64,000 nt of DNA, taken from the NCBI RefSeq assembly GCF_058153355.1, contig NZ_CM177019.1. One strand, given 5' to 3'. Of this stretch, positions 37,998 to 64,000 are shown piece by piece (within the stretch, counting starts at the first letter, position 1; each line of letters starts with the position of its first letter). A program made the translations under genes and the position numbers. The notes under the pieces are model-generated. The model had not been told where the DNA came from and searched no databases. It was given only the letters and a program-made list of their open reading frames with translations.

Positions 37998-38909
37998 GTG
38001 AGTACATTAGAACAAACAATAGGCAATACGCCTCTGGTGAAATTACAACGAATGGGGCCGGATAACGGCAGTGAAGTGTGGTTAAAGCTGGAAGGCAATA
38101 ATCCGGCCGGTTCGGTGAAAGATCGTGCGGCGCTTTCGATGATCGTCGAGGCGGAAAAGCGCGGGGAAATTAAACCGGGTGATGTGTTAATTGAAGCCAC
38201 CAGTGGTAACACCGGGATTGCGCTGGCAATGATTGCCGCGCTAAAAGGCTATCGCATGAAATTGCTGATGCCCGATAACATGAGCCAGGAACGCCGTGCG
38301 GCGATGCGTGCCTACGGTGCGGAGCTGATTCTGGTCACCAAAGAGCAGGGCATGGAAGGCGCGCGCGATCTGGCGCTGGAGATGGCGAATCGCGGTGAAG
38401 GCAAGCTGCTCGATCAGTTCAATAATCCCGATAATCCTTATGCGCATTACACCACCACCGGGCCGGAAATCTGGCAGCAAACCGGCGGCCGCATTACCCA
38501 TTTTGTCTCCAGCATGGGGACGACCGGTACGATTACCGGCGTGTCGCGCTTTATGCGCGAGCAATCCAAACCGGTGACCATTGTTGGTCTGCAGCCGGAA
38601 GAGGGCAGCAGCATTCCCGGCATTCGTCGCTGGCCTGAGGAATATCTGCCAGGCATCTTCAACGCTTCGCTGGTGGATGAGGTGCTGGATATTCATCAGC
38701 GCGATGCGGAAAACACCATGCGCGAACTGGCAGTGCGGGAAGGGATTTTCTGCGGTGTAAGTTCCGGCGGCGCGGTTGCCGGAGCACTGCGGGTGGCAAA
38801 AGCCAACCCTGGTGCAGTGGTGGTAGCGATCATCTGCGATCGTGGCGATCGCTACCTTTCTACCGGGGTGTTTGGGGAAGAGCACTTTAGTCAGGGGGCG
38901 GGCATTTAA
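37998..38909 (+). CDS. cysM: cysteine synthase B (O-acetylserine sulfhydrylase B)
   Basis: 303-aa PLP-enzyme ORF. Confidence 0.93.
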   Translation: MSTLEQTIGNTPLVKLQRMGPDNGSEVWLKLEGNNPAGSVKDRAALSMIVEAEKRGEIKPGDVLIEATSGNTGIALAMIAALKGYRMKLLMPDNMSQERRAAMRAYGAELILVTKEQGMEGARDLALEMANRGEGKLLDQFNNPDNPYAHYTTTGPEIWQQTGGRITHFVSSMGTTGTITGVSRFMREQSKPVTIVGLQPEEGSSIPGIRRWPEEYLPGIFNASLVDEVLDIHQRDAENTMRELAVREGIFCGVSSGGAVAGALRVAKANPGAVVVAIICDRGDRYLSTGVFGEEHFSQGAGI

Positions 38910-39113: not shown

Positions 39114-39848
39114 TTAATTTTCGTGTGGAAACGTAGTAAGGTCATCAATCATTTTTTGAAGTATTGGTGAGTCCTGACCATCACCCCATTGAAGAATTTT
39201 TGCGGTAAGCTGATGACGGGCTAGTGCATTGAGTCCCATCTTTTTAAGTTTATGGGAGATTTTACCCATGACTTTAATCTGACCGAATGCAGTTGCGTAG
39301 GTAATCATATTGCTCTGGATAGTGCTCATTTCATCGGCTAGTAATTGCGCACGAATATCCTCTTCAAGAATACTTTCCATAGCGATATATTTCATACCCC
39401 AGATAGTTTCAATTAACATTTGAGGGAAATCAGCACAATCTAGATCCGGCTCTTTACGCAGGCTATTTTCAAGAACGTTTAGAGCATCAGCACCTTCATC
39501 GCTGCCAAAAGGAGATTCTTCATCCCAGCAACACACATAAAGTGGATCAGTAAAATGGCACTGGAAGTTTGGGTGTGACGTTTTAACATGTAACCCAATT
39601 TCTTCATCATCAAAATAGTAGCGATCCATGTAGTTAAAGTTTGGATCTTCTTGATAGCCTTTCTTCATTTTTGCGGCAATCAATTTACTGGCTTCTTTCA
39701 GACACTGTTCTTCATTATCGAACTCTTTTGTCTGGAATTTACCAATACTACCTACCTTGCCATAGTTGATAGCTAAACTATCCCCTTCGTAATCTATCCA
39801 CCAAAATTTATTCGATTTTTCATCGTTATAAATAAAGCATTTTTTCAT
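39114..39848 (-). CDS. yfeS: WGR-domain protein YfeS
   Basis: 244-aa ORF MKKCFIYNDEKSNKFWWIDYEGDSLAINYGKVG... (WGR-like N-terminus); synteny. Confidence 0.8.
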   Translation of the reverse strand: MKKCFIYNDEKSNKFWWIDYEGDSLAINYGKVGSIGKFQTKEFDNEEQCLKEASKLIAAKMKKGYQEDPNFNYMDRYYFDDEEIGLHVKTSHPNFQCHFTDPLYVCCWDEESPFGSDEGADALNVLENSLRKEPDLDCADFPQMLIETIWGMKYIAMESILEEDIRAQLLADEMSTIQSNMITYATAFGQIKVMGKISHKLKKMGLNALARHQLTAKILQWGDGQDSPILQKMIDDLTTFPHEN

Positions 39849-40358: not shown

Positions 40359-41210
40359 ATGAGTAGTTTGTTGTTGTTTAACGATAAGAGCAGAGCGTTG
40401 CAGGCGGATATTGTCGCGGTGCAGTCGCAGGTAGTGTACGGCAGCGTAGGCAACAGCATTGCCGTGCCTGCTATTAAACAGAACGGCCTGAATGTCTTTG
40501 CCGTGCCGACGGTATTGCTGAGCAATACGCCGCATTATGACACTTTCTACGGCGGTGCGATTCCGGACGAATGGTTTAGCGGCTATTTGCGTGCGCTTCA
40601 GGAGCGTGATGCGCTGCGCCAGCTGCGCGCTGTCACCACGGGCTATATGGGAACGGCATCGCAAATCAAAATCCTTGCCGAGTGGCTGACTTCGCTACGC
40701 AAAGACCATCCTGACTTATTGATTATGGTCGATCCGGTGATTGGCGATATTGATAGCGGAATTTATGTCAAACCTGACCTTCCTGAGGCATACCGACAAT
40801 ATTTACTGCCTCTGGCGCAGGGTATTACGCCTAATATCTTTGAGCTGGAAATCCTGACAGGTAAAAATTGCCGCGATCTCGACAGCGCCATTGCTGCCGC
40901 AAAAAGTCTGCTTTCAGACACATTAAAGTGGGTGGTGATTACCAGTGCCTCCGGTAATGAAGAAAATCAGGAGATGCAGGTGGTGGTGGTCACCGCCGAC
41001 AGCGTGAATGTCATTTCCCATTCACGGGTTAAAACTGACCTGAAAGGTACTGGCGACCTGTTTTGTGCTCAGCTTATCAGTGGCTTGTTGAAAGGTAAGG
41101 AATTAACTGACGCGGTACATAGCGCGGGATTACGCGTGCTGGAGGTGATGCGCTATACCCAGCAGTATGGTAGCGATGAATTGATTTTGCCGCCGCTGAC
41201 GGAAGCATAA
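40359..41210 (+). CDS. pdxK: pyridoxal/pyridoxine/pyridoxamine kinase
   Basis: 283-aa ribokinase-family ORF. Confidence 0.92.
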
Positions 41211-41218
41211 AAAAATGG

Positions 41219-41230
41219 CGCCCATCGGCG
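41219..41230. repeat. IS4 target-site duplication, left copy (cgcccatcggcg)
   Basis: 12-bp direct repeat identical to 42657-42668, immediately flanking the IS4 ends. Confidence 0.85.
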
Positions 41231-42656
41231 TAATGCCAGTCAGTTAAGCAACTGACTGGCTCTTTTTCGGGGCTGTGGGGTATTTCCAGGGCCTCTCCTT
41301 TACCACTCTCGGGAAGGCCCTTTCCCTTCTTGTCGGTAATTTCACAAGTTGTCCCATACTTGCAAGATCGCGCATCAGCTCCGGTATACGTCCCGGTGAA
41401 GCGCCCTGCAATGTCATCAGCATTCTCATCACCATTCCGCATGATTCTGAGAAACTCAGTTGATTCGGCCAGTAACCTTTCAGATGTTCCGCCATTTTAA
41501 TCATCTGATATCTCACCAGATTATAAGCCAGTAAGACACCCCACAGCTCTTGCTCCACAAGCTCCGGCTTTTTACTTCTCAGCGTCAGCCTGCTCAGTTG
41601 CATCGTCTGTTTTATCTCCCTGTATCCCAGTTCGATTTCCCAGCGATGACTGTACAGATCCGCCATTTCTCCTCCGGGGAAGCGCATGGCGTCCGTCATC
41701 GACGTCAGCAGATGGCAGACTTTTCCTTTGCGCGTCACGGTCAGCAGGCGGGCTGTCACTTCATTTCCCAGTCCCGGCCACTTTTTTCGTGCCTGCGGGC
41801 TGGTTTTCAGCTTCACCAGATGATCGCCTTTACCCAGTTTTCTGATCTCTTCATATTGCGCTCCCTTTCTGAGAGGTATCATCCAGTGGCGGTGTTCTCC
41901 CGCCAGGCTCCAGGCATTTAACAGTCCCAGTGAGTAATAACCTTTATCCATTAACGTCAGAGTGTTATCGCCGGTTTGTTCTATAAGTTGCTCAGCAAGC
42001 TCATTTTCGCTGTTCTTCATCGTGCCGAAGGCTGCAGCCGTCAGCAGATGGCTGGTCAGTTCCATCTGGCAGACCATTTTGACCTGCGGGTAGAGCGCCG
42101 GGTTCCCGGCATGTGTCTGGCGGGGGAAGGCTGCATCGTTCTCTGGTGTATCCGGTGTGCGCCAGAACACACCATCGATGGCCAGCAGGGTCAGGCCGCA
42201 CCAGTGCGGATGCGGCGTGGCGTTATGCCAGAGCTGCGCTGTTTTCGTGAACACGCGGCGGACAGCCTCACTTCCCAGGCGCTGGCGGGCCTGAATAACG
42301 GCACTGGGGGCAACGAAGGGGCGATTGCCCGGCAGCATGATGTCCAGGCGATTCACAATCTGGTGAAGAGGTTCTTTACGCTCAAGCGCCATGCCAACAA
42401 TACACCAGACCATCATTTCGAGGGGAAGACGGCGCTTGCGTAGCGTTACAGTACCTGATTCGGCAAGGCAACGAGAGATGAGTTCGGGGTCGAGGTAATC
42501 CCCCAGAGAAGTCAGTGGGTTACGCAGAGAATCGTAACGGGATACCAGATCAAGAGCCTGTCCAATGTGCATAAAAAAATCCGGAAACAAGTGAGCGTTT
42601 CCGGATTCTTACACAGCCACTGGATCGGTCAACTGATCCTTAACTGATCGGCATTA
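41231..42656 (-). mobile_element. IS4 insertion sequence, complete (1426 bp)
   Basis: Imperfect terminal inverted repeats (left taatgccagtcagttaag..., right end reverse complement taatgccgatcagttaag...); one long transposase ORF; 12-bp target duplication; length matches IS4. Confidence 0.9.
41244..42590 (-). CDS. IS4-family transposase (DDE)
   Basis: 448-aa [29 protein letters not shown]...; recognised as IS4-type transposase. Confidence 0.9.
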
Positions 42657-42668
42657 CGCCCATCGGCG
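42657..42668. repeat. IS4 target-site duplication, right copy (cgcccatcggcg)
   Basis: Identical to 41219-41230. Confidence 0.85.
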
Positions 42669-42690
42669 CCATTTTTCACTGCGGCAAGAA

Positions 42691-43200
42691 TTATTTCTTG
42701 ATGCGAATAACCGGAGTTTCACCCACAGTCACGCTACCGGACAGTTTGATCAGTTCTTTGATTTCGTCCATGTTGGAGATAACAACCGGAGTCAGGGTAG
42801 ACTTGGCTTTCTCTTCCAGCAGCGGCAGATCGAATTCAATCACAGTATCGCCAACTTTCACGCGCTGACCTTCTTCAGCAATACGCTTGAAGCCTTCGCC
42901 TTTCAGTTCAACAGTGTCGATACCGAAGTGAACGAACAACTCAACGCCGCTATCAGATTCGATAGAGAACGCGTGGTTGGTTTCAAAGATTTTACCAATG
43001 GTGCCGTCTACAGGCGCGACCATTTTGTTACCAGTTGGTTTGATAGCAATACCATCACCAACGATTTTTTCCGCAAAAACGACATCCGGCACGTCTTCGA
43101 TATTGACGATCTCGCCAGAGAGCGGAGCAATGATCTCAATAGTTCCGGTATCCTTCTTGTCGTCGGAAACCAGAGATTTCAGTTTATCGAACAAACCCAT
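42691..43200 (-). CDS. crr: PTS glucose-specific EIIA component
   Basis: 169-aa [42 protein letters not shown]... Confidence 0.95.
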
Positions 43201-57564: not shown

Positions 57565-57640
57565 TGGTGGGTCGTGCAGGATTCGAACCTGCGACCAATT
57601 GATTAAAAGTCAACTGCTCTACCAACTGAGCTAACGACCC
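57565..57640 (-). tRNA. lysV: tRNA-Lys (anticodon UUU)
   Basis: Reverse complement is GGGTCGTTAGCTCAGTTGGTAGAGCAGTTGACTTTTAATCAATTGGTCGCAGGTTCGAATCCTGCACGACCCACCA; 76 nt with encoded CCA. Confidence 0.95.
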
Positions 57641-57644
57641 GAAG

Positions 57645-57720
57645 TGGTGGGTGATGACGGGATCGAACCGCCGACCCCCTCCTTGTAAGGGAGGTGCTCT
57701 CCCAGCTGAGCTAATCACCC
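57645..57720 (-). tRNA. valY: tRNA-Val (anticodon UAC)
   Basis: Reverse complement is GGGTGATTAGCTCAGCTGGGAGAGCACCTCCCTTACAAGGAGGGGGTCGGCGGTTCGATCCCGTCATCACCCACCA; gene symbol from remembered operon order. Confidence 0.93.
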
Positions 57721-57766
57721 ACTTCGGTACTTCACATTGTTACAAGAAATCTAGCTGGCGAGAAAG

Positions 57767-57842
57767 TGGTGGGTGATGACGGGATCGAACCGCCGACCCC
57801 CTCCTTGTAAGGGAGGTGCTCTCCCAGCTGAGCTAATCACCC
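57767..57842 (-). tRNA. valX: tRNA-Val (anticodon UAC)
   Basis: Identical 76-nt copy. Confidence 0.93.
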
Positions 57843-57886
57843 ACTTCTCAATTTCTTGCTACACGGCGGAGACTACATAAAGTAGT

Positions 57887-57962
57887 TGGTGGGTGATGAC
57901 GGGATCGAACCGCCGACCCCCTCCTTGTAAGGGAGGTGCTCTCCCAGCTGAGCTAATCACCC
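57887..57962 (-). tRNA. valU: tRNA-Val (anticodon UAC)
   Basis: Identical 76-nt copy; first gene of the operon. Confidence 0.93.
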
Positions 57963-60659: not shown

Positions 60660-60735
<76 letters not shown>

Positions 60736-60774
60736 AAATTTTGCACCCAGCAAATTTGGTACGTAAACGACTCG

Positions 60775-60850
<76 letters not shown>

Positions 60851-60886: not shown

Positions 60887-61058
60887 GTCTCTGCTTTTTG
60901 CCGCTTTTGTAATACAGTCTACGTCCGGGTCAGCGCCGCCTGGTGAAAGCATCATTGGATGAAAAATCGGCAACAGGCTGGCCTCTGTTTGCTTCGCGAT
61001 GCGAATAAACTTATTATTTGTGTGCCTGAAAACCCCGATCAGTGAGAGTTGTGTACTC

Positions 61059-63248
61059 ATGTTTGTGGAGCATAACCTGATAAAAAATATCAAGATATTC
61101 ACACTAGCGTTTACGCTCACCGTGGTACTTATTCAGCTATCCCGTTTTATTTCGCCACTTGCCGTTATCCATTCCAATTATATCTTTCTGGCGTGGATGC
61201 CACTGTGCGTAATGCTGTCAATCTTGTTTATCTTTGGCTGGCGCGGTGTCGTTCCCGTTTTATGCGGGATGTTTTGCACCAATCTGTGGAACTTTCATCT
61301 CTCTTTTTTACAGACCGCGGTCATGATCGGCAGCCAGGCGTTTGCAGTCCTGTGTGCCTGTGCAATATTACGCTGGCAATTGGGAACGCGTTGGCGTTAT
61401 GGTTTGACCAGCCGATACGTCTGGCAACGTCTCTTCTGGCTTGGTTTGGTGGCACCGATTGGCATCAAATGCAGCATGTATTTTGTGGGGAATTTCTTTG
61501 ATTTTCCGCTAAAGATATCTACCTTTTTCGGCGATGCGGATGCCATTTTCACAGTCGTTGATTTACTAAGCCTTTTCACCGCTGTGCTGATTTACAACAT
61601 GCTTTTCTACTATCTCACTCGCATGATTGTAAGTCCCCACTTTGCGCAGATATTGTGGCGCAGGGATATCGCTCCGTCGTTGGGCAAAGAGAAACGCGCA
61701 TTTACCTTAAGCTGGCTGGCAGCGTTAAGCGTGCTGCTACTTCTGTTGTGCACACCTTATGAAAACGACTTTATTGCCGGTTACCTGGTACCCGTTTTCT
61801 TCATCATCTTTACCCTCGGGGTCGGTAAGCTTCGCTATCCGTTTTTAAATCTCACTTGGGCTGTTTCAACGCTTTGCCTGCTGAATTACAACCAGAACTT
61901 TTTGCAAGGGGTACTAACCGAATATTCGCTGGCATTTATTCTCGCGGTGCTGATTTCCTTTAGTGTTTGCCTGCTCTATATGGTGCGCATTTATCATCGT
62001 AGTGAATGGCTTAACCGACGCTGGCATTTGCAGGCGCTGACCGATCCGTTAACGCTCTTACCCAACTTTCGCGCGTTGGAACAAGCACCAGAGCAAGAGG
62101 CTGGCAAGAGTTTTTGCTGCCTGCGTATTGATAACCTTGAGTTTATGAGTCGTCATTACGGCTTAATGATGCGCGTTCACTGTATCCGCTCAATTTACCG
62201 TACGTTAATGCCGCTGATGCAGGAAAACGAAAAGTTGTATCAATTGCCGGGGAGTGAACTGCTATTAGTACTGAGCGGGCCGGAAACGGAAGGGCGACTC
62301 CAGCATATGGTTAACATCCTGAATAGTCGGCAAATTCACTGGAACAATACCGGGCTGGATATGGGCTATGGTGCCGCCTGGGGACATTTTGATGGAAATC
62401 AGGAAACCCTGCAACCCTTGTTGGGGCAGTTAAGCTGGCTGGCGGAGCAATCCTGCGCACATCATCATGTGCTGGCGCTGGATAGCAGAGAGGAGATGGT
62501 TTCCGGGCAAACCACTAAACAGGTGCTATTGCTGAATACCATTCGTACTGCATTAGATCAGGGCGATTTGCTGCTCTACGCCCAGCCAATTCGCAACAAA
62601 GAGGGTGAAGGTTATGATGAGATCCTCGCGCGACTGAAATATGACGGCGGCATTATGACCCCGGATAAGTTTCTGCCCCTTATTGCTCAGTTTAACCTTA
62701 GCGCGCGTTTTGATTTGCAAGTGCTGGAATCCCTGTTGAAGTGGCTGGCAACACATCCTTGCGACAAAAAAGGCCCGCGCTTTTCAGTCAATTTAATGCC
62801 GCTCACGCTGCTGCAAAAGAATATTGCCGGGCGGATTATTCGTCTGTTTAAGCGTTATCACATCTCCCCGCAGGCGGTCATTCTCGAGATCACCGAGGAG
62901 CAGGCATTTTCTAACGCAGAAAGCAGCATGTACAACATCGAGCAGCTGCATAAGTTTGGTTTCCGGATTGCGATTGATGACTTTGGCACCGGATATGCCA
63001 ACTACGAACGGTTAAAGCGTTTGCAGGCTGATATCATCAAAATTGATGGCGTCTTTGTGAAAGATATCGTCACGAACACGCTGGATGCGATGATTGTGAG
63101 ATCAATTACCGATCTGGCGAAAGCGAAGTCATTGAGTGTGGTCGCGGAGTTTGTCGAGACGCCACAGCAGCAGGCGCTATTGCATAAGCTCGGGGTGCAA
63201 TATCTGCAAGGGTATTTGATTGGTCGCCCTCAGCCATTAGCTGATTAA
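61059..63248 (+). CDS. pdeA: membrane-anchored c-di-GMP phosphodiesterase (degenerate GGDEF-like region plus EAL domain)
   Basis: MFVEHNLIKNIKIF... hydrophobic N-terminal half and C-terminal EAL-type domain; internal Met of track ORF 60999..63248 by synteny with K-12 yfeA. Confidence 0.85.
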   Translation: MFVEHNLIKNIKIFTLAFTLTVVLIQLSRFISPLAVIHSNYIFLAWMPLCVMLSILFIFGWRGVVPVLCGMFCTNLWNFHLSFLQTAVMIGSQAFAVLCACAILRWQLGTRWRYGLTSRYVWQRLFWLGLVAPIGIKCSMYFVGNFFDFPLKISTFFGDADAIFTVVDLLSLFTAVLIYNMLFYYLTRMIVSPHFAQILWRRDIAPSLGKEKRAFTLSWLAALSVLLLLLCTPYENDFIAGYLVPVFFIIFTLGVGKLRYPFLNLTWAVSTLCLLNYNQNFLQGVLTEYSLAFILAVLISFSVCLLYMVRIYHRSEWLNRRWHLQALTDPLTLLPNFRALEQAPEQEAGKSFCCLRIDNLEFMSRHYGLMMRVHCIRSIYRTLMPLMQENEKLYQLPGSELLLVLSGPETEGRLQHMVNILNSRQIHWNNTGLDMGYGAAWGHFDGNQETLQPLLGQLSWLAEQSCAHHHVLALDSREEMVSGQTTKQVLLLNTIRTALDQGDLLLYAQPIRNKEGEGYDEILARLKYDGGIMTPDKFLPLIAQFNLSARFDLQVLESLLKWLATHPCDKKGPRFSVNLMPLTLLQKNIAGRIIRLFKRYHISPQAVILEITEEQAFSNAESSMYNIEQLHKFGFRIAIDDFGTGYANYERLKRLQADIIKIDGVFVKDIVTNTLDAMIVRSITDLAKAKSLSVVAEFVETPQQQALLHKLGVQYLQGYLIGRPQPLAD

Positions 63249-63255
63249 CAGGCGT

Positions 63256-63286
63256 AAAAAAGCCGGGGAATTATCCCCGGCTTTTT
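63256..63286. terminator. bidirectional rho-independent terminator between pdeA and nupC
   Basis: aaaaaagccgggg-aatta-tccccggcttttt. Confidence 0.7.
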
Positions 63287-63302: not shown

Positions 63303-64000
63303 TTACAGCACCAGTGCTGCGATTGACGCAGACAGCACACTCACCAGAGTAGAGCCGTAAACCAGTTTCAGACCGAAGCGAGAAACCACGTTACCTTGCT
63401 CTTCATTCAGGCCTTTAACCGCACCGGCGATAATCCCGATAGAAGAGAAGTTAGCGAAGGAAACCAGGAACACAGAGATGATGCCTTCAGCACGCGGAGA
63501 GAGCGTGGAAGCAATTTTCTGCAGATCCATCATTGCAACGAACTCGTTGGAAACCAGTTTGGTCGCCATAATACTGCCCACCTGCAGTGCTTCACTGGAA
63601 GGAACACCCATCACCCAAGCAACCGGATAGAAGATGTAGCCCAGGATGCCCTGGAAGGAGATGCTGTAGCCAAACCAGCCAGTCACAGTGGCAAACAGTG
63701 CGTTCAGCGCAGCGATCAGGGCGATAAAGCCGATCAGCATCGCGGCAACGATAATGGCAACTTTGAAACCTGCCAGAATGTATTCACCCAGCATTTCGAA
63801 GAAGCTCTGACCTTCGTGCAGGTTGGACATCTGAATGTTTTCTTCACTGGCATCAACACGGTAAGGGTTGATCAGCGACAGCACGATAAAGGTGCTGAAC
63901 ATGTTCAGTACCAGCGCCGCAACGACGTATTTCGGCTCCAGCATCGTCATGTATGCACCAACGATGGACATCGACACGGTGGACATCGCCGTAGCTGCCA
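63303..64000 (-). CDS. nupC: nucleoside permease NupC, C-terminal part (gene continues beyond window end)
   Basis: Minus-strand frame ends ...[16 protein letters not shown]; polytopic membrane protein; the track Met at 63986 is internal. Confidence 0.88.

Follow-up and report, generated by a model that had tools for sequence, protein, structure and literature searches.

In the window (the whole 64,000-nucleotide stretch of DNA that was analysed), a complete copy of IS4 flanked by a perfect direct repeat lies between the convergent pdxK and crr genes, both of which are intact (Table 1). Matching copies of the element are annotated as 'IS4-like element IS4 family transposase' and share 99.9% identity with it across 1426/1426 bp. 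Its terminal inverted repeats, TAATGCCAGTCAGTTAAG and TAATGCCGATCAGTTAAG, agree at 16/18 positions and are thus imperfect; they are the only terminal-repeat matches in the window, where 0.09 would be expected by chance. The transposase is encoded on the same strand as crr, ptsI and ptsH. Its reading frame yields 442 aa from the ATG at 42572, or 448 aa from an alternative TTG start at 42590, which is also the start used in RefSeq. The 442-aa form matches NCBIfam NF033592 with 304.5 bits (cutoff 115), and Pfam Nterm_IS4 (PF13006) and DDE_Tnp_1 (PF01609) are found on a protein identical to the transposase of the window. A Y(2)R(3)E(6)K motif was located at residue 307. No Rfam RNA families were found inside or adjoining IS4. 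The original prediction had described a complete 1426-bp IS4 with imperfect terminal inverted repeats, a 448-aa transposase and a 12-bp target duplication, and each of these agrees with the boundaries, identities and start site given here. The element is an intact, ordinary IS4 (IS4 family, IS4 subgroup), that is, a known element in a known type of target. An IS4 copy covering at least 80% of the element is present in 2,479 of 5,426 E. coli genomes, and the best match reaches 99% or more in 1,826 records. The genes pdxK and cysM are locally divergent and recombinant-looking.

Table 1 Features at the pdxK/crr locus (positions of the window).
Feature	Position	Strand	Description
pdxK CDS	40359-41210	plus	283 aa, intact; ORF list; pdxK annotation in syntenic E. 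coli loci
Left outer arm of former terminator	41211-41218		AAAAATGG; A-run and 3-nt gap before the duplication
Target-site duplication, left copy	41219-41230		12 bp, CGCCCATCGGCG; loop and top 4 bp of either stem arm
IS4, complete	41231-42656	minus	1426 bp; full-length 99.9% identity to annotated IS4 copies
Terminal inverted repeat, transposase-distal end	41231-41248		TAATGCCAGTCAGTTAAG; 16/18 match to opposite end
Inward-facing terminator-like element	41235-41267	plus	11-bp stem, 4-nt loop, then TCTTTTT
IS4 transposase (InsG-type)	41244-42572	minus	ORF list and profile match; 442 aa from ATG
Hairpin at crr-side end	42573-42610	minus	AAGAAUCCGGAAAC / GUUUCCGGAUU... then U7; ~14-15 bp stem, directly upstream of transposase ATG
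Promoter-like site	42605-42632	minus	TTGACC, 16-nt spacer, TG, AAGAAT
Terminal inverted repeat, transposase-proximal end	42639-42656		18 bp
Target-site duplication, right copy	42657-42668		12 bp, CGCCCATCGGCG; perfect direct repeat
Right outer arm of former terminator	42669-42676		CCATTTTT; 3-nt gap and T-run
crr CDS	42691-43200	minus	169 aa, intact; ORF list; 100% identical to crr of E400634

The interrupted hairpin between pdxK and crr

The stop codon of pdxK (TAA, 41208-41210) lies 20 nt from IS4, and that of crr 22 nt past the right duplication copy. Removal of IS4 together with one duplication copy rebuilds AAAAATGGCGCCCATCGGCGCCATTTTT, a 28-bp palindrome with the layout AAAAA-TGG-(12 bp)-CCA-TTTTT. 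The naturally unoccupied site of E. coli E400634, a close relative, has the very same sequence, and the site is also empty in K-12 MG1655. In empty-site strains, the palindrome occupies most of the 42-nt interval between the pdxK and crr stop codons. The comparison with an insertion-free strain bears out two further elements of the original prediction, namely that excision restores a palindrome, and that the insertion has split an A-run/hairpin/T-run arrangement shared by two convergent genes.

The rebuilt hairpin folds with -21.6 kcal/mol followed by U5 in the pdxK direction, and with -26.1 kcal/mol followed by U7 in the crr direction. On the basis of sequence and folding, the rebuilt site is predicted to act as a bidirectional intrinsic terminator common to pdxK and crr. 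Each junction now retains only a 4-5 bp mini-hairpin, and the junction remnants fold like shuffled sequence (z -0.26 and -0.13), so the native terminator structure is lost on either side. A consensus terminator scan of the empty locus left the native hairpin unflagged, and the crr-side IS4 hairpin was likewise unflagged, because maximal stem extension absorbs the T-run; these two hairpins were assigned by reading the folds, and the scan misses were taken as a limit of the tool. A literature search for experimental evidence of a crr/pdxK terminator found none. A REP element was also considered as the target and ruled out, since the hairpin sequence occurs only once and is confined to the pdxK-crr intergenic region.

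The IS4 target rule

The original prediction had proposed looking for the palindrome at other IS4 sites, and this gave a positive result. We compared 17 distinct IS4 sites, drawn mainly from one multi-copy genome and a handful of others, and found a common rule: the duplication, 11-14 bp long, is separated by 3 nt from an A-run on its left and by 3 nt from a T-run on its right. The core of the target is G+C-rich, usually with C first and G last. An A is present at -6 and -5 in 17/17 sites and a T at +4 to +6 in 16-17 of 17, while the gap is exactly 3 nt at 12/15 sites on the left and 14/17 on the right. Of the 17 independent sites, 11 show the A-run/T-run signature, as against 0.22% of window positions (binomial P ~7e-26). 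Folding gives a terminator-like hairpin at approximately 12 of these 17 sites, examples being those after adhE, eno, rpoD, degS/mdh, bipA, aroA, opgH and bamD. The length of the duplication tracks the A-to-T spacing across the sites; staggered cuts placed 3 nt inside each tract give a duplication equal to the A-to-T spacing minus 6. At pdxK/crr, a spacing of 18 corresponds to the 12-bp duplication.

The rule describes a strong preference that allows exceptions. Three intra-coding sites and the site upstream of nanX fit it partially, and the feaB/tynA site has a right gap of 0 nt. The rule predicts a second site in the window, at 63256-63286 after pdeA, the sole other window site with 18-20 nt spacing; it is empty here but occupied by IS4 elsewhere, in 9 + 6 genomes. 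At the cysK terminator, where the spacing is 16 nt, 0 of 5,425 genomes show an interruption. For the tRNA-operon terminator (~57548), taken as a negative control, the coverage figures are dominated by tRNA repeats and copy-number variation. The rule predicts population-wide hot spots, the pdeA site being occupied in other genomes and the cysK site never hit.

A search of the accessible literature for a published IS4 target consensus retrieved none. Mayaux et al. reportedly described in 1984 a target of roughly AAA-N20-TTT, with the pheST attenuator terminator as the example, and the preference of IS4 for A/T arms is already published. A mutation-accumulation study recorded 8 de novo IS4 insertion events, of which 4 were non-coding (PMC5009759).

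Hairpins at the ends of IS4

Both ends of IS4 carry a hairpin that faces incoming transcripts. The pdxK-side hairpin, which overlaps the transposase stop codon on the opposite strand, is the top match of the terminator scan and folds with -18.7 kcal/mol (z -4.8). The crr-side hairpin folds with -23.3 kcal/mol (z -6.5) when its 5' arm is included, and with -0.7 kcal/mol if the RNA starts at ~42600. It is therefore predicted to form only in RNA entering from outside, in the crr direction. A promoter-like site with 9/12 consensus matches in the promoter scan overlaps this hairpin, such matches being no more frequent in the region than in shuffled sequence. Because its -10 element falls within the hairpin's 5' arm, the transcript predicted to start from IS4 itself would lack that arm.

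With a hairpin and U-run at either end of IS4, pdxK transcripts would probably run on for ~58 nt beyond their stop codon, and crr transcripts for ~116 nt beyond theirs. Read-in from pdxK is thus likely to be limited to a few tens of nt, and that from crr to ~100 nt, if the modelled hairpins function as terminators. In outside-derived RNA the crr-side hairpin would in addition bury the region preceding the transposase start, while RNA from the predicted promoter, which starts within the hairpin, would remain unfolded at this position. We infer from these folds that the transposase may be insulated from outside transcription. These observations can be combined into a broader proposal, in which IS4 is a specialist for bidirectional terminators that obeys a ruler-like rule, the target itself fixing the length of the duplication (spacing minus 6, for spacings of ~17-20), and swaps the terminator it destroys for its own inward-facing ones; we put this forward tentatively, as a possibility that is still rather doubtful.

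Occurrence, origin and consequences of the insertion

The pdxK/crr site is interrupted in 56 of 5,425 E. coli genomes. IS4 lies within the same 12 bp in 54 of 5,426 complete E. coli genomes, in the crr orientation in 38 and in the pdxK orientation in 16. These 54 occupations represent at least 3 independent events, and pdxK/crr is a population hot spot, struck by separate IS4 insertions of either orientation in other E. coli lineages. The occupied sites examined elsewhere have a duplication with a GATG loop, and the window has a CATC loop, a rare allele found in 18 of 4,975 matching records. Both duplication copies in the window carry CATC, which is confined to the closest relatives, whose site is empty, and this indicates a lineage-specific and fairly recent insertion. 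An inversion of the entire duplication-IS4-duplication unit within the arms of the palindrome was weighed as the origin of the CATC/GATG difference. It was discarded because IS4 would then point the other way, and in the window and SMS-3-5 it has one and the same orientation. The exact junction of the window was found in one other public dataset only (a Logan contig, SRR31441161), and it can be used as a strain marker. The repeated hits on the same 12 bp in separate lineages make a shared IS4 position unsafe evidence of common descent.

The original prediction went further and suggested that, with the terminator split, transcripts of the highly expressed ptsHI-crr operon may enter IS4 in the sense of its transposase, and pdxK transcripts in antisense. 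Taken as a functional reading, this would raise transposase levels, and the orientation and position of the element would be regulatory. Several observations are in line with this: the native hairpin is split, the 4-5 bp remnants fold no better than shuffles, the entry side lacks a U-run, and transposase and crr are co-oriented; moreover, intrinsic terminators are rarely 100% efficient. Against it, this reading takes no account of the structures that IS4 itself carries: RNA coming from crr would meet the -23.3 kcal/mol hairpin and U7, specific to outside-derived RNA, before it reaches the ATG, and the 11-bp hairpin and T-run meet pdxK transcripts within 58 nt. IS4 also sits stably downstream of further strongly expressed genes, for example eno, rpoD, adhE and mdh. 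The co-orientation of the transposase with ptsHI-crr holds as a fact, but the special significance attached to it does not, as 16 E. coli genomes have IS4 in the opposite orientation in the same 12 bp. The read-through reading thus looks weaker than stated, and we consider it unlikely.

The choice of the site itself could be explained differently: IS4 might recognise not the A-tract/T-tract sequence signature but DNA structure, for instance a cruciform extruded at a palindromic terminator or a hairpin formed there at the replication fork. The near-perfect palindromes at ~12 of 17 distinct sites, with insertion always at the top of the hairpin, would be compatible with this. However, the coding sites in DUF4049 and bcsG have little or no hairpin potential (-6.6 and -3.9 kcal/mol, respectively); that in ygeA reaches -15.1 kcal/mol, though not as a single target hairpin. 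All three keep the T-run at a 3-nt gap, DUF4049 also the A-run, whereas the strong cysK terminator hairpin, with the wrong spacing, is never hit. Recognition of structure as such is therefore, in our estimate, quite improbable. A further alternative is that IS4 and its flanks were acquired by homologous recombination from a strain already occupied at pdxK/crr. While the recombinant appearance of pdxK and cysM and the 54 other genomes with IS4 at this site make a donor conceivable, the CATC loop is present in both duplication copies as opposed to GATG at every examined occupied site elsewhere, E400634, a relative with the site empty, has a crr flank 100% identical to that of the window, and no junction among 5,426 genomes matches by >96%. 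Acquisition by recombination is accordingly very improbable, the least credible of these readings.

The reading we favour, and regard as very likely, is that an intact IS4 transposed into the bidirectional terminator hairpin of pdxK/crr because this hairpin fits the IS4 target signature. The event would have removed the native terminator in both directions, leaving the pdxK and crr coding sequences untouched, and is probably near-neutral, the site forming a safe haven between two genes. With pdxK and crr intact, the insertion in the window is in itself of little consequence. More generally, by choosing the loop region of bidirectional terminators that separate convergent, often highly expressed genes, IS4 spares its host, and its own hairpins could, if they fold as modelled, restore termination and shield the transposase. 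Should the quantitative rule and the terminator-swap design not have been spelled out previously, they would, if true, offer a modest new insight into how an IS remains harmless.

Comparison with known systems

The element is the same as IS4 of E. coli K-12 (insG), with which it shares a length of 1426 bp, 99.9% identity, 18-bp imperfect repeats and a single DDE/YREK transposase. Its 12-bp duplication lies within the 11-13 bp known for IS4, the other copies examined having 11-14 bp, and the target is likewise flanked by A and T runs, leaving chromosomal location as the sole difference. The single resident IS4 of K-12 lies near nanX/yjhB, resembling the site seen in L031. In other E. coli strains, for example SMS-3-5 and AR_0013, IS4 has entered this terminator at the very same 12 bp. 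Insertions of the SMS-3-5 type have the orientation of the window, and the IS4 copies of the window and SMS-3-5 at pdxK/crr differ by 2 nt. In sites of the SMS-3-5/AR_0013 type, however, the duplication reads CGCCGATGGGCG, with the loop in the opposite sense, and the pdxK alleles differ from that of the window; the insertions are independent events.

IS10 and IS50 (Tn10 and Tn5) have, close to the transposase-proximal end, an inverted repeat that spans the start region and takes up its fold in read-through RNA alone. The protection predicted for IS4 is alike, with the predicted promoter starting inside the hairpin, and differs in that the IS4 hairpin is followed by U7 and so also resembles an intrinsic terminator. 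A strong preference for short, dyad-symmetric intergenic targets with A/T-rich arms, serving as safe havens, has been described for IS231A (IS4 family), IS1397, IS621 and ISRm22 (PMC1525189, PMC2266710). Their targets differ from those of IS4, being the ends of Tn4430 for IS231A and REP elements for IS1397, IS621 and ISRm22, and the IS110-family members among the REP- and terminator-targeting elements use a chemistry different from that of IS4.

An intact IS4 element between pdxK and crr

The element that separates the convergent genes pdxK and crr has terminal inverted repeats matching at 16 of 18 positions, and these are the sole two matches in the window (0.09 expected by chance). When searched against NCBIfam NF033592 (IS4 family transposase), the 442-aa transposase scored 304.5 bits, the cutoff being 115. 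It contains a Y(2)R(3)E(6)K motif at residue 307, and public annotation of the identical protein lists the Pfam domains Nterm_IS4 and DDE_Tnp_1. Along its whole length the DNA shows 99.9% identity to sequences that carry the annotation 'IS4-like element IS4 family transposase', and among 5,426 complete E. coli genomes, 2,479 have a near-full copy. The element is IS4 itself, every defining feature that was testable being present, and the copy is apparently intact. The full-length identity and the perfect direct repeat bear out the original prediction of a complete IS4 with a 12-bp target-site duplication, and the transposase indeed lies on the same (minus) strand as ptsHI-crr. IS4 seldom transposes in laboratory lines, with 8 of 758 new insertions, four of the eight non-coding, in the figures given by one report (PMC5009759).

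Removal of IS4 and one repeat copy from the window yields GCATAAAAAAATGGCGCCCATCGGCGCCATTTTTCACTGCGG. This exact sequence occurs uninterrupted in E400634, an E. coli relative whose crr is 100% identical to that of the window, and the empty-site reconstruction is thus verified against a real genome; the palindromic hairpin expected on removal of the element exists in an insertion-free strain. Folded as RNA, the native hairpin is predicted to form 8 G+C-rich pairs, lengthened by A-U pairs, with energies of -21.6 kcal/mol in the pdxK direction (followed by U5) and -26.1 kcal/mol in the crr direction (U7). It takes up most of the 42 nt separating the two stop codons and, as judged by structure and position, is built like a bidirectional intrinsic terminator. 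A literature search found no transcript-mapping support for a native pdxK/crr terminator. Our consensus terminator scan does not flag the hairpin in an empty locus from another genome (L013, 3275-3320), because the maximal stem swallows the T-run; the scan is blind to any hairpin with a stem extendable into flanking A/T runs, as the T-run is then counted as stem. Such hairpins are typical of bidirectional terminators, and the scan also overlooks the crr-side hairpin within IS4.

Features of the pdxK/crr insertion and of related loci in the window
Feature	Position	Strand	Description
IS4	41231-42656	-	1426 bp; left end TAATGCCAGTCAGTTAAG, right end its imperfect inverse
Target-site duplication	41219-41230 and 42657-42668		perfect 12-bp direct repeat CGCCCATCGGCG
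IS4 transposase	from 42590 or 42572	-	single long ORF; 448 aa from TTG 42590 (RefSeq start) or 442 aa from ATG 42572
Loop of split hairpin	41223-41226 and 42661-42664		CATC in the window and closest relatives
pdxK	40359-41210	+	coding sequence intact; IS4 starts 20 nt past its stop
crr, ptsI, ptsH	from 42691 onward	-	crr coding sequence intact; its stop 22 nt from right duplication copy
pdxK-side IS4 hairpin (predicted)	41235-41267	+	GCCAGUCAGUU-AAGC-AACUGACUGGC then UCUUUUU; faces pdxK transcripts
crr-side IS4 hairpin (predicted)	42610-42573	-	about 14-15 bp then U7, ends at transposase ATG; faces crr transcripts
Promoter-like site (consensus match)		-	TTGACC, 16-nt spacer, TG, AAGAAT; -10 in 5' arm of crr-side hairpin
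Unoccupied hairpin	63256-63286		AAAAAAGCCGGGGAATTATCCCCGGCTTTTT; 20-nt A-to-T spacing; between pdeA (60999-63248, +) and convergent ORF 63303-63986 (-)
cysM	37998-38909		
yfeS-like WGR-domain ORF	39114-39848	-	
tRNA cluster (Rfam)	57568-57962	-	four genes; adjoins xapR
tRNA cluster (Rfam)	60661-60848	+	two genes

Independent insertions and the lineage of the window

The pdxK/crr point is interrupted in 56 of the 5,425 genomes containing the region. IS4 lies there in the window's orientation in 38 genomes, and in the opposite orientation, at the same position and next to several pdxK alleles, in 16; co-orientation with ptsHI-crr is no special property. In strain SMS-3-5, IS4 occupies the same 12 bp and both duplication copies read CGCCGATGGGCG. 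The loop of the split hairpin is GATG in K-12, N96, SMS-3-5 and nearly all other E. coli, the CATC form of the window being present in only 18 of 4,975 matching records. Given a perfectly palindromic stem, one form is in effect the inverted loop of the other, a change that intrastrand template switching at a hairpin is expected to produce. An inversion of the whole duplication-IS4-duplication unit between the palindrome arms was also considered as the origin of the two forms, and was rejected because IS4 would flip with it, yet the window and SMS-3-5 share one orientation. The loop inversion provides a natural barcode telling IS4 insertion events apart: CATC with the transposase co-oriented with crr, GATG in this same orientation and GATG in the pdxK orientation are all found, and therefore at least three independent insertions occurred in the same 12 bp. 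Since CATC stands in each of the window's two duplication copies, the IS4 here inserted after the loop flip, inside this rare lineage.

For the crr-ptsI-ptsH-cysK side of the window, only 17 records reach 99% identity or more (best 99.8%), the others falling in the range 95-99%. The pdxK gene is a divergent allele with 93% identity to K-12, compared with 97% for crr and 99% for ptsI, and cysM is 92.7% identical to that of SMS-3-5 (a figure that does not refer to K-12). On these identities, the pdxK/cysM region looks like a local recombination mosaic. The exact PdxK protein was found in only one other public contig. The exact junction was present in none of the complete E. coli genomes searched (best full-length match 96.0%); elsewhere in public data it turned up just once, in a 2.3-kb Logan contig (SRR31441161) whose end falls within the junction. 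A pdxK-crr segment with the rare CATC allele was also seen in the 50-kb non-chromosomal record NZ_CP098226.1 (database match H96) of strain Z0117EC0005, whose chromosome has a pdxK-crr region as well; this segment could be a plasmid-borne chromosomal piece or an assembly artefact. The yfeS-like ORF is a presence/absence polymorphism, lying between cysM and yfeK in the window, K-12 and E400634, and absent from SMS-3-5, N96, AR_0013 (another strain with IS4 at pdxK/crr) and others.

A target rule for IS4

Seventeen distinct IS4 sites, the window's among them, were collected from an exact-transposase lookup across public assemblies plus eight E. coli matches, and were aligned at both cuts. Their duplications measure 11-14 bp throughout, beginning with C and ending with G in 13 of 17. 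A is found at -6 and -5 in all 17 sites and T at +4 to +6 in 16-17. A gap of exactly 3 nt separates the A-run from the duplication in 12/15 sites and the duplication from the T-run in 14/17, and duplication length tracks the A-to-T spacing, with 18, 19 and 20 nt corresponding to 12, 13 and 14 bp. Runs of A4 and T4 occur together at 11 of 17 sites versus 0.22% of window positions (P about 7e-26), and approximately 12 of 17 fold as strong terminator-like hairpins with IS4 at the hairpin top, including those downstream of adhE/tdk, eno, rpoD/mug, degS/mdh, bamD, opgH, bipA, aroA and feaB/tynA. The question of whether other IS4 sites share the A-run/T-run palindrome is thus answered in the affirmative. 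At three sites, all within coding sequences, hairpin-forming potential is poor, yet the T-run is preserved at the 3-nt gap, and at one of them so is the A-run; this speaks for IS4 recognising the sequence or shape of the tracts rather than an extruded hairpin. A 1984 study reportedly derived the consensus AAA-N20-TTT for IS4 targets, from sites including the pheST attenuator terminator.

Other terminators, too, are targets that IS4 has hit recurrently. IS4 occurs in both orientations at the opgH/yceK terminator across different genomes (loci L004/L023 versus L018), and five or more genomes have it at adhE/tdk, where the duplications vary slightly (L003, L020, L022, L028, L029). At the ravA/kup target of E. 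coli SCU-172 (L030; NZ_CP054353.1, 19038-22863), IS4 lacks a duplication and is flanked by the expected kup side and by an unrelated truncated GntR-family gene adjoining yidE, which suggests rearrangement between IS4 copies, of which SCU-172 carries 18.

In the 62.5 kb of the window outside IS4, a strong hairpin with both runs is found in only four places, two of which have 18-20 nt spacing: pdxK/crr, which is occupied, and the unoccupied hairpin downstream of pdeA. Chimeric queries joining the pdeA flank, cut at the rule-predicted position, to either IS4 end returned full-length matches at 98-99% identity, with nine genomes in one orientation and six in the other. At the cysK terminator hairpin (about 45618, spacing 16), none of 5,425 genomes shows an interruption; for a tRNA-operon terminator, used as a second control, the signal was confounded by tRNA repeats. 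The tRNA cluster adjoining xapR is annotated as tRNA-Val/tRNA-Lys in matching genomes, and its copy number varies among E. coli. The pdxK/crr site neatly illustrates how IS4 uses hot spots recurrently and by rule.

Predicted transcription into the element

Following insertion, each gene keeps an A-run and a 4-5 bp mini-hairpin without a U-run, and the junction remnants fold no better than shuffles (z -0.26 and -0.13). The native terminator would therefore be lost both ways, and on the split terminator the original prediction was right. The consequences drawn in the original prediction were incomplete, as IS4's own inward-facing end structures were left out. The pdxK-side hairpin is the top match of the terminator scan (-18.7 kcal/mol), its U-run ending about 58 nt beyond the pdxK stop; for the crr-side hairpin (-23.3 kcal/mol, z -6.5), the distance from the crr stop is about 116 nt. 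With such structures at both ends, read-through into the transposase gene is probably limited. According to one preprint survey, sequences resembling terminators are enriched upstream of and within insertion sequences (bioRxiv 10.1101/2025.07.22.666184). The insertion itself is likely near-neutral, which fits IS4's occurrence after numerous strongly expressed genes and its two orientations at pdxK/crr.

The original observation is confirmed in every detail; neither the element nor the kind of target it occupies is new. Relative to the literature reached, three points may be slight advances: the explicit 3-nt-gap rule, whereby subtracting 6 from the spacing gives the duplication; the pdeA site, a second hot spot that the rule predicted successfully; and the predicted replacement terminators at both IS4 ends. 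In the design of IS10 and IS50, incoming outside RNA folds and the element's own RNA stays unfolded. By its predicted folds and putative promoter, the crr side of IS4 may follow this design: RNA entering from outside would fold, and be terminated or have the transposase start region buried, and IS4's own RNA, from the putative promoter with its -10 element in the hairpin, would stay unfolded, an RNA starting near 42600 without the hairpin's 5' arm being unstructured in the fold (-0.7 kcal/mol).
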